From a virus (Duplodnaviria; Heunggongvirae; Uroviricota; Caudoviricetes): 5,278 nt of DNA. The position numbers and the translations under genes were made by a program. The notes beneath the pieces are model-generated. The model was not told the DNA's origin and searched no databases. It saw only the letters and a list, made by a program, of their open reading frames with translations. The DNA lies in IMG/VR virus record IMGVR_UViG_2778261227_000018, positions 1-5,278 of that record; one strand, given 5' to 3'. Below, piece by piece: positions 1 to 989 of this stretch; within the stretch, counting starts at the first letter, position 1; the number at the start of each line of letters is the position of its first letter.

Positions 1-573
1 ATGTTTTGCGAAGAAAAAGTAGCTCAAATGGCTGCATACCTACTTCTTAAGAGAGGTGGGCGCATGGCATATCTGAAATTGATGAAGCTGCTCTATCTGT
101 CTAACCGCCAGTCGATTTTGAAGCATGGCAGGATGATCGGCGAAGATAGCCTTTACTCTATGAAATTTGGACCAGTCATGTCGAATACGCTGAACTTGAT
201 TCGCGGTAAGGCTGAAGGCATTGGTGACTACTGGTACAACTTGATAGAGACGAACGGGCATAATGTATCGTTGCGTTCAGATCCGAGGGAAATGGATGCA
301 GACGAGGTCTTTGATGAATTGAGTCGTGCAGATATCCGGATTTTAGATGAAATCTATTCTCGGTATGGGCATATGAACCGATTTGATCTCGCAAATATGA
401 CGCATTTAGAAAGCGTTTGTCCAGAGTGGCACGATCCTGGCAATTCTCGTAAGCCTATAGACCTGAAAGAAATGCTGATCAGTGAGGGTAAAAGCGAGGA
501 TGAGGCTAATCGCATAATTGGCAAAATGGAAGAATCTCAGAAACTTAAGGAATTTTCTTTGCAATTATCATGA
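1..573 (+). CDS. Panacea (DUF4065) domain protein, SocA/GepA-like; candidate PanA-type antitoxin
   Basis: 190-aa ORF in frame 1. The N-terminal core KLMKLLYLSNRQ...(x)...SMKFGPV matches the conserved KLxKLLY...GPV pattern I recall for Panacea/DUF4065 proteins. Stop TGA (571-573) overlaps the ATG of the next ORF (ATGA at 570-573). The ATG at 1-3 sits on the window edge, so the true start could lie upstream. Confidence 0.7.
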   Translation: MFCEEKVAQMAAYLLLKRGGRMAYLKLMKLLYLSNRQSILKHGRMIGEDSLYSMKFGPVMSNTLNLIRGKAEGIGDYWYNLIETNGHNVSLRSDPREMDADEVFDELSRADIRILDEIYSRYGHMNRFDLANMTHLESVCPEWHDPGNSRKPIDLKEMLISEGKSEDEANRIIGKMEESQKLKEFSLQLS

Positions 574-989
574 CGGATTATCAGCCATACAGGAAAGGAA
601 CTGTGCTTGCCCCAACTGGACCATGCAATCATCTTCATGTGATTTGTAATGATCCTGTTTATTACCCCGTTAACGATTGTTATTGTGTTTTAGTTGTTAA
701 TATTTCTAGTATCAAGGATGGTGTCCCCCACGATCCGTCTTGCGTCTTGAATTCTGGTGATCATCGCTTTATCAAGCATCCAAGTTATGTTGTTTACGCT
801 GAAGCTATAATTTGGCGAGTGGATAACATGGTTAGAAAGCAGCGATCGGGTGAGATTTCTGTTCATGATGATATGCCAGAAGCTACATTCAATAGAATTC
901 TGGACGGTTTTGATATCTCTGATGAAGTTACGCCAAAGAACCTTAAATTTAAAAATAAATATTGCGTATCATCTATTGATGATGAGTAA
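570..989 (+). CDS. hypothetical Cys/His-rich protein; candidate toxin partner, possibly PemK/MazF-like fold
   Basis: 139-aa ORF whose ATG overlaps the upstream stop by 4 nt, with no canonical SD within 5-9 nt (nearest AAGGA is about 19 nt upstream), implying coupled translation. By-eye resemblance to MazF/PemK toxins: H-x-x-V...P...C-x-C-V and W-R...K...G...P-E...I segments (IIWRVDNMVRKQRSGEISVHDDMPEATFNRI against MazF IAWRARGATKKGTVAPEELQLI). Stop TAA at 987-989. Confidence 0.6.
   Translation: MTDYQPYRKGTVLAPTGPCNHLHVICNDPVYYPVNDCYCVLVVNISSIKDGVPHDPSCVLNSGDHRFIKHPSYVVYAEAIIWRVDNMVRKQRSGEISVHDDMPEATFNRILDGFDISDEVTPKNLKFKNKYCVSSIDDE

Follow-up and report, generated by a model that had tools for sequence, protein, structure and literature searches.

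Do the first two open reading frames (ORFs) of a stretch of phage DNA encode an antitoxin and its toxin, and if so, what kind of toxin is it? The stretch, called the window here, is the whole piece of DNA that was analyzed, 5,278 nucleotides (nt) long and corresponding to positions 1 to 5,278 of the IMG/VR virus record IMGVR_UViG_2778261227_000018 (Caudoviricetes). A first-pass annotation of it had proposed that ORF2 encodes a divergent MazF/PemK-type toxin, which is paired with a Panacea antitoxin instead of MazE or PemI. Our analysis indicates that ORF1 and ORF2 probably constitute a PanA-PanT type II toxin-antitoxin (TA) pair of the published PanT cluster T6, located in a prophage cargo cassette and with a translation-blocking toxin of the MazF fold. 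The structure of the genes, the fold predicted for ORF2, the conservation of the pairing, the family assignment, and the boundaries of the cassette, all described below, were obtained directly. We refer to the two genes as panA and panT, and their features are as follows.

1 to 573, plus strand: panA (ORF1), encoding a predicted antitoxin of 190 amino acids (aa) with one Panacea (DUF4065/SocA-like) domain at residues 27-137.
570 to 573, plus strand: ATGA start/stop overlap, with the panT ATG over the ORF1 stop codon; likely site of translational coupling.
570 to 989, plus strand: panT (ORF2), with an ATG start codon, encoding a 139-aa protein predicted to be a toxin with a MazF/CcdB-like SH3-type barrel.

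ORF2 is a genuine gene, because its close homologues, which fall into 62 clusters from Enterobacterales, Vibrio, and Shewanella, align with it from the first methionine, and 2703 representative proteins match a profile of the family. It had been described as overlapping ORF1 by 4 nt and lacking a usable Shine-Dalgarno (SD) sequence, and the coordinates, the ATGA, and an SD scan all agree with that description. There was no GGAG-like motif 5-12 nt from the start codon in the 25 nt 5' of panT (AAGGAATTTTCTTTGCAATTATC). For ORF1, a GAGG SD sequence is present approximately 9 nt 5' of the ATG. Of 30 homologous loci, 14 have the same ATGA at the panA-panT junction and 2 more have an overlap of 1 nt, and so the earlier argument for coupling was a reasonable one. 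Because of the ATGA overlap and the absence of an SD sequence of its own, synthesis of the toxin may depend on translation of panA. Therefore, translational coupling of panT to panA is plausible. Separately, we observed truncated ORF2 variants (116-128 aa) in E. coli.

The ORF1 product matched the Panacea family in Pfam (PF13274; E = 2.2e-19; score of 70.9 bits, with 25.7 as the cut-off), which bears out its original assignment as a Panacea protein. RefSeq also names it "Panacea domain-containing protein." PanA is a stand-alone Panacea domain without an additional N-terminal domain, and a profile of 30 homologues revealed weak conservation of its C-terminal tail (residues 166-190), whereas residues 134-153 are a conserved segment. 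Among 32 loci from GTDB species genomes, 30, ranging from Enterobacterales to Alphaproteobacteria, encoded a PanA homologue directly upstream of panT and in the same orientation. The two remaining loci are short of the upstream DNA needed to judge the pairing (one is a 277-nt contig, and the other has 208 nt upstream). Three remote PanT members, from Thermoguttaceae, Sphingopyxis, and a metagenome-assembled genome, also had a PF13274 gene of 185-189 aa immediately upstream. Pairing with Panacea is a defining feature of the PanT family. In a protein collection clustered at 90% identity, the 139-aa PanT, the 190-aa PanA, and a 232-aa "DUF4065" entry share one cluster of 541 members, which may be a clustering artefact arising from ORFs that were called wrongly or fused across the ATGA.

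The first-pass annotation considered a MazF-like toxin with a Panacea partner to be an unusual pairing, but this has been superseded by the literature. Panacea was defined and its partner toxins were catalogued by Kurata et al. (2022; PNAS 119:e2102212119; PMC8832971). PemK-type toxins are among the partners detected there with CDD, and HHpred matched PanT cluster T5 to EndoA/MazF at 99.5% (PMC8832971). Cluster T6 has a validated representative, PanT of Pseudomonas moraviensis (pair accessions WP_083201923.1 / WP_083354365.1). It is toxic, is neutralized by and copurifies with its PanA, specifically inhibits incorporation of 35S-Met (protein synthesis), and has HHpred matches to EndoA/PemK/MazF (PMC8832971).

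We conclude from sequence comparison that ORF2 belongs to T6, because homologous loci are present in two strains listed in T6, with the same gene order and gaps and with 55-56% identity. In Dataset S1 of the published work, this cluster includes Pantoea septica LMG 5345, with antitoxin before toxin and a gap of -4, as well as "Yersiniaceae bacterium 2016Iso4," with a gap of -1 (PMC8832971). In our collection, the P. septica LMG 5345 locus (L007) encodes a protein 56% identical to ORF2 (E = 1e-48, gap -4), and the strain 2016-Iso4 locus (L006) encodes one that is 55% identical (E = 3e-49, gap -1). The T6 proteins were matched to these loci by strain, gene order, and gap and not by accession number. 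Proteus, Pluralibacter, and Photorhabdus are also in the T6 list (PMC8832971), and they are in or near genera that hold close ORF2 homologues.

The P. moraviensis pair and the pair studied here are alike in having a Panacea-only antitoxin gene first, the toxin gene second, and an overlap of 1-4 nt, and the published HHpred call agrees with the fold that we predicted for ORF2. They differ in setting, because panAT is in a cassette of a lambdoid E. coli prophage and the P. moraviensis pair received the score "NotPhage." They also differ in that the enterobacterial subclade that includes ORF2 has an extra conserved set of residues (H23, C26, C37, C39, and C132).

We used structure prediction followed by a Foldseek search to examine the proposal of a MazF-type fold, and the search returned MazF. 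An AlphaFold2 model of ORF2, built from a 54-sequence alignment, had a mean predicted local distance difference test (pLDDT) score of 90 and a predicted template modeling (pTM) score of 0.83. It has strands at residues 10-16, 19-25, 30-32, 37-47, 72-83, and 97-99 and helices at 84-93, 104-116, and 122-131. When it was compared with the PDB, the best 50 matches were all MazF, with E values from 3e-3 and template modeling (TM) scores of 0.5-0.6. PemK-like proteins and endoribonucleases ranked first in a comparison with viral models. Therefore, ORF2 is predicted to have the SH3-like barrel fold of MazF and CcdB, and the central structural idea of the first-pass annotation was right. The model also differs from MazF in several respects. 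The hairpin or loop between strands 1 and 2 is very short, a long and confidently modeled loop (residues 48-71, with D55, C58, and H65) replaces MazF strands 4 and 5, and there are two additional helices (84-93 and 122-131).

The relationship was not apparent from the sequences themselves. The first-pass annotation had aligned two segments of ORF2 to E. coli MazF by eye, and this hand alignment proved no better than chance. BLASTP of ORF2 against E. coli MazF (a sequence 98-100% identical to proteins named MazF) gave E values of at least 0.5 and recovered neither segment. When a 122-sequence family profile was compared by hhalign with MazF alone, Kid alone, or a 25-sequence MazF plus Kid alignment, the E value was about 0.2 (0.22 for MazF plus Kid), and global-mode hhalign of the profile produced no meaningful MazF alignment. 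The Pfam PemK model (PF02452) did not match ORF2 and matched only 1 of the 122 family members, at E = 0.11. No MazF was found by phmmer or hmmsearch against PDB sequences. The best local hhalign register, which is not significant, places HLHVICNDP opposite HRPAVVLSP, so that H21-L22-H23 face H28-R29-P30 of MazF. This register coincides with the first hand-aligned segment, and it also places MazF R29 opposite L22 and MazF T52 opposite S46. In the second segment, the "IxWR" residues (including R83) are not conserved in the family, and the consensus has no majority residue there. Together with the missing PemK match, the apparent replacement of Arg29 by a nearly invariant leucine does not support membership of the MazF family at the sequence level. 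Common ancestry with MazF rests on the fold and the published HHpred result, because the sequence and profile methods provide no link.

To what family does ORF2 then belong? It had no match to any model in Pfam, NCBIfam, or PADLOC, and its sole family-model match was phrog_19071, for which the function is not known. Weak matches to ICMT and the DapC aminotransferase were rejected as chance because they cover 18-40 residues and fall far under the cut-offs. A search of 1.84 billion representatives with the family profile found 2703 proteins at E values up to 1e-3 and 929 at E values up to 1e-10. These matches are representatives at 50% identity. Therefore, the PanT family is large.

Conservation was examined in 122 diverse family members. 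H21 is invariant (122/122), and D55 (120/122), C58 (119/122), H65 (120/122), and L22 (leucine in 118/122) are nearly so. Individually, L22, D55, C58, G63, H65, F67, S72, Y76, G113, and S117 are found in 94% or more of the members. Serine or threonine occupies position 46 in 104 of the 122 (85%) and position 47 in 98%. Every residue that is conserved across the family is kept in ORF2. From this pattern, it is possible that H21, D55, C58, and H65 form a metal site.

ORF2 also has the cysteine- and histidine-rich stretches near its N terminus that were pointed out originally as a sign of possible metal binding (C19-N-H21-L-H23-V-I-C26 and C37-Y-C39). The stretches are there, but metal binding by them is not a family trait. 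H23, C26, C37, C39, and C132 (window positions about 636-968) are present as a full set in 37 of 300 family members, which form an enterobacterial-type subclade, and they are mostly missing elsewhere. Among seven Cys/His positions scored, C58 alone is retained in 131 of the 300. The N-terminal cluster was therefore rejected as a family-wide metal site, because the set is confined to one subclade. The five residues could be a subclade-specific structural metal site or disulfides, or they could merely reflect shared ancestry.

The same genes are found in Escherichia phage Lys8385Vzw (MT225100), which matches window positions 1-1250 with 100% identity. There, both ORFs are labeled "hypothetical protein," and an integrase is encoded immediately upstream in the opposite orientation. 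The Lys8385Vzw locus (L001) and phage mEp460 (L034) have flanks that are 97-98% identical up to L001 position 5807 and from L001 position 7016 onward. Between these points, Lys8385Vzw has a 1208-bp block (L001 5808-7015) that contains panA-panT, starts 192 nt before the window, and ends at window position 1015. The same slot in mEp460 (L034 2198-3000) is occupied by 803 bp containing an unrelated gene for a 177-aa protein (gp23) with no Pfam match. The guanine-plus-cytosine (GC) content of the cassette is 38-44%, versus 47-50% in the adjoining early genes. The cassette is oriented away from int and xis, and a weak sigma-70-like site (TTGACC-17-TAAACT) is located 126-154 nt upstream of panA. 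Therefore, because of the mEp460 swap, the low GC content, the promoter-like site in the upstream DNA of the cassette, and a terminator, the interval between int and xis is a phage "moron," or swappable cargo, slot of lambdoid prophages. The features of this region are as follows.

1 to 1015, no strand assigned: part of the cargo ("moron") cassette that is within the window; the cassette is 1.2 kb in total and starts 192 nt 5' of window position 1 in Lys8385Vzw.
1029 to 1202, plus strand: ORF3, encoding a 57-aa protein (phrog_2741, E = 1e-34, function not known); phage backbone, between panT and the terminator.
1221 to 1246, plus strand: intrinsic terminator-like hairpin, GAAAACCCGCC-TTCA-GGCGGGTTTTT followed by a T-rich tail, with an 11-bp stem (from a terminator scan; L001 7221-7246).

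The hairpin ends the rightward unit, back to back with the end of a leftward xis-like gene, and ORF3 is probably cotranscribed with the cassette. We rejected the idea that the system includes ORF3 as a third gene, because ORF3 is missing from all 32 other panAT loci and is found beside xis in mEp460, a phage that lacks panAT.

Among 5426 complete E. coli genomes, 208 had panAT, always on the chromosome and with 90-100% identity. The pair was intact at 95-100% identity in 206 complete E. coli genomes. RefSeq labels the two products "Panacea domain-containing protein" and "hypothetical protein."

How might the pair work? By analogy to the P. moraviensis T6 member, PanT would most likely arrest growth by blocking translation, and it is probably a metal-independent endoribonuclease (RNase). 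We infer the toxicity of this PanT, its RNase chemistry, the roles of its conserved residues, and a role in defense from the validated relative, the topology of the model, and established TA biology. From the topology of the model, the active site would be on the MazF-like face, where strand 2 begins and where strand 3 ends and runs into the next loop. Candidate residues are H21, S/T46-47, D55, C58, and H65, which would be in place of MazF Arg29. Catalytic residues vary within the MazF fold (H17, R73, and D75 in Kid; R29 and T52 in MazF). Because they already differ between those two toxins, PanT could plausibly be an RNase that uses other residues. PanA would neutralize PanT by direct binding, by analogy. 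With the ATGA overlap and no SD sequence, panT would be translated by ribosomes that are finishing panA, so that toxin would not exceed antitoxin. In a lysogen, the pair would probably serve for addiction or abortive infection, and PanA would be the component that is either lost or triggered.

There are points that count against this interpretation. The link between ORF2 and PemK/MazF was absent from every sequence and profile method that we used. The catalytic arginine of MazF is not conserved, and L22 takes its place in the sole, nonsignificant register. The connection to the validated P. moraviensis toxin runs through the clustering in the published work; a homologue search with a profile of distant members only found no Pseudomonas entry, and a cluster look-up of 10 distant PanT representatives returned metagenomic proteins only. 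Translation inhibition alone appears to have been reported for T6 members, with RNase activity only proposed, and several predicted "mRNase" PanTs of enterobacterial phages, from cluster T1, were not toxic (PMC8832971). Finally, the promoter-like site upstream of panA does not exceed chance expectation (5 such sites expected, 3 found).

Three alternative explanations rank below a T6 PanA-PanT pair with a translation-blocking toxin. PanT might have the MazF fold but a different chemistry. In this case, H21, D55, C58, and H65 would be a Cys-His-Asp-type center or a zinc site, and the toxin, still neutralized by PanA, would be a nuclease that requires metal, or an enzyme that modifies protein or RNA, instead of an Arg/Thr RNase. 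The conservation of these four residues (122, 120, 119, and 120 of 122, respectively) argues for this, as does leucine at the Arg29 equivalent in 118 of 122, and the loop that bears D55, C58, and H65 (48-71) takes the place of MazF strands 4 and 5. Histidine, aspartate, cysteine, and histidine are typical zinc ligands. However, a serine or threonine is kept at the MazF T52 position (S46; 104/122). Also, known members of the fold already differ in their catalytic residues, and so new residues need not mean new chemistry. We consider this explanation unlikely. A related proposal concerns T6 as a whole, which might be its own branch within the MazF/CcdB fold, one that has lost the Arg-based site and gained an invariant His21/Asp55/Cys58/His65 center on the remodeled loop, as a metal site or of the Cys-His-Asp type. 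We advance this tentatively, as a possibility that is somewhat doubtful.

It is also conceivable that the pair is not a working TA system here, with ORF2 nontoxic on its own (a sensor/effector that requires a trigger, or a decayed toxin) and the two proteins sharing some other function. This is consistent with the "mRNase" PanTs of E. coli MOD1 and Salmonella phage Emek (T1), which Kurata et al. found "not toxic" (PMC8832971), and with the truncated E. coli variants of ORF2 (116-128 aa). However, the nontoxic cases are from another cluster, and the T6 representative that was tested is a genuine TA pair (PMC8832971). Furthermore, ORF2 retains all of the residues conserved across the family, and the pair is intact in 206 complete genomes at 95-100% identity. 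Loss of TA function is therefore very unlikely. A DNA gyrase poison like CcdB, instead of a translation inhibitor, is the most improbable of the three. The predicted barrel is one that MazF and CcdB share, but CcdB of the F plasmid had a lower structural score against ORF2 than MazF did, and its antitoxin is the CcdA protein.

A T6 PanA-PanT pair, the interpretation that we prefer, can also be compared with other known systems. MazF, Kid (PemK), and EndoA (PF02452) have no detectable sequence similarity to ORF2, and their antitoxins are MazE and PemI. The partner of PanT is a Panacea domain and not a MazE/PemI-type AbrB or ribbon-helix-helix protein that binds the toxin through a disordered tail. 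The type III toxins CptN, ToxN, and AbiQ also had lower structural scores against ORF2 than MazF did, and their antitoxins are RNA repeats. No tandem-repeat RNA antitoxin was found at panAT. Because no Rfam family matched anywhere in the window, nothing points to an RNA antitoxin. The NetFlax follow-up work found MazF/PemK among the commonest toxin folds and found that a stand-alone Panacea domain can directly neutralize a toxin, with a sensor role proposed (PMC10440598). CapRel(SJ46) (Zhang et al. 2022, Nature; PMC9712102) is prophage borne and has a Panacea-related antitoxin element, as at panAT. However, its toxin is a toxSAS tRNA pyrophosphokinase fused to the antitoxin, whereas PanT has the MazF fold and is encoded by a separate gene (PMC9712102). 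In CapRel(SJ46), the antitoxin element senses a phage protein (PMC9712102), and by analogy to that model, panAT may have a role in defense.

Beyond the terminator, the window covers the early-left region of a lambdoid phage. Pfam matches identified a PrtN-type excisionase, an Rv2179c-like exonuclease, a DUF551 protein, an Ead/Ea22 protein, a PAPS-reductase-like protein, and an HD hydrolase. The window is 98.9% identical to Lys8385Vzw over positions 1-3243 and 95% identical over 4744-5278. The intervening 1.5 kb (3244-4743) contains the end of the Ead/Ea22 gene and an ORF encoding a 292-aa PAPS-reductase/PP-loop-like protein (3873-4751, minus strand), and it has no counterpart in the 13-kb Lys8385Vzw stretch that was compared. 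This looks like a mosaic exchange in the early-left region. An ORF for a 225-aa protein (2703-3380, minus strand), with no Pfam match, overlaps the Ead/Ea22 gene (3220-3876, minus strand) by 160 nt; the GenBank version is shorter (2703-3218). The DUF551 protein (2140-2706, minus strand; PF04448, E = 3e-21) is annotated as "valyl-tRNA synthetase" in MT225100, which looks like a mis-annotation.

What does this locus mean for the TA field and for E. coli? It is an ordinary member of a known, published TA family, and the picture of TA biology is unchanged, because Panacea-MazF-like pairs and the T6 family were reported in 2022. Even so, a predicted fold and function can now be assigned to a gene that is labeled "hypothetical protein" in both RefSeq and GenBank. 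About 4% of complete E. coli genomes carry panAT, including O157:H7 and O103 strains. The int-xis slot is cleanly bounded, and it is a useful place to seek other defense or addiction genes. The conserved residues of PanT differ from those of MazF. If T6 is indeed a separate branch with its own active center, then PanT would inhibit translation by a chemistry that is undescribed for the MazF/CcdB fold, and C26, C37, C39, and C132 would give the enterobacterial prophage proteins a second, structural metal site.
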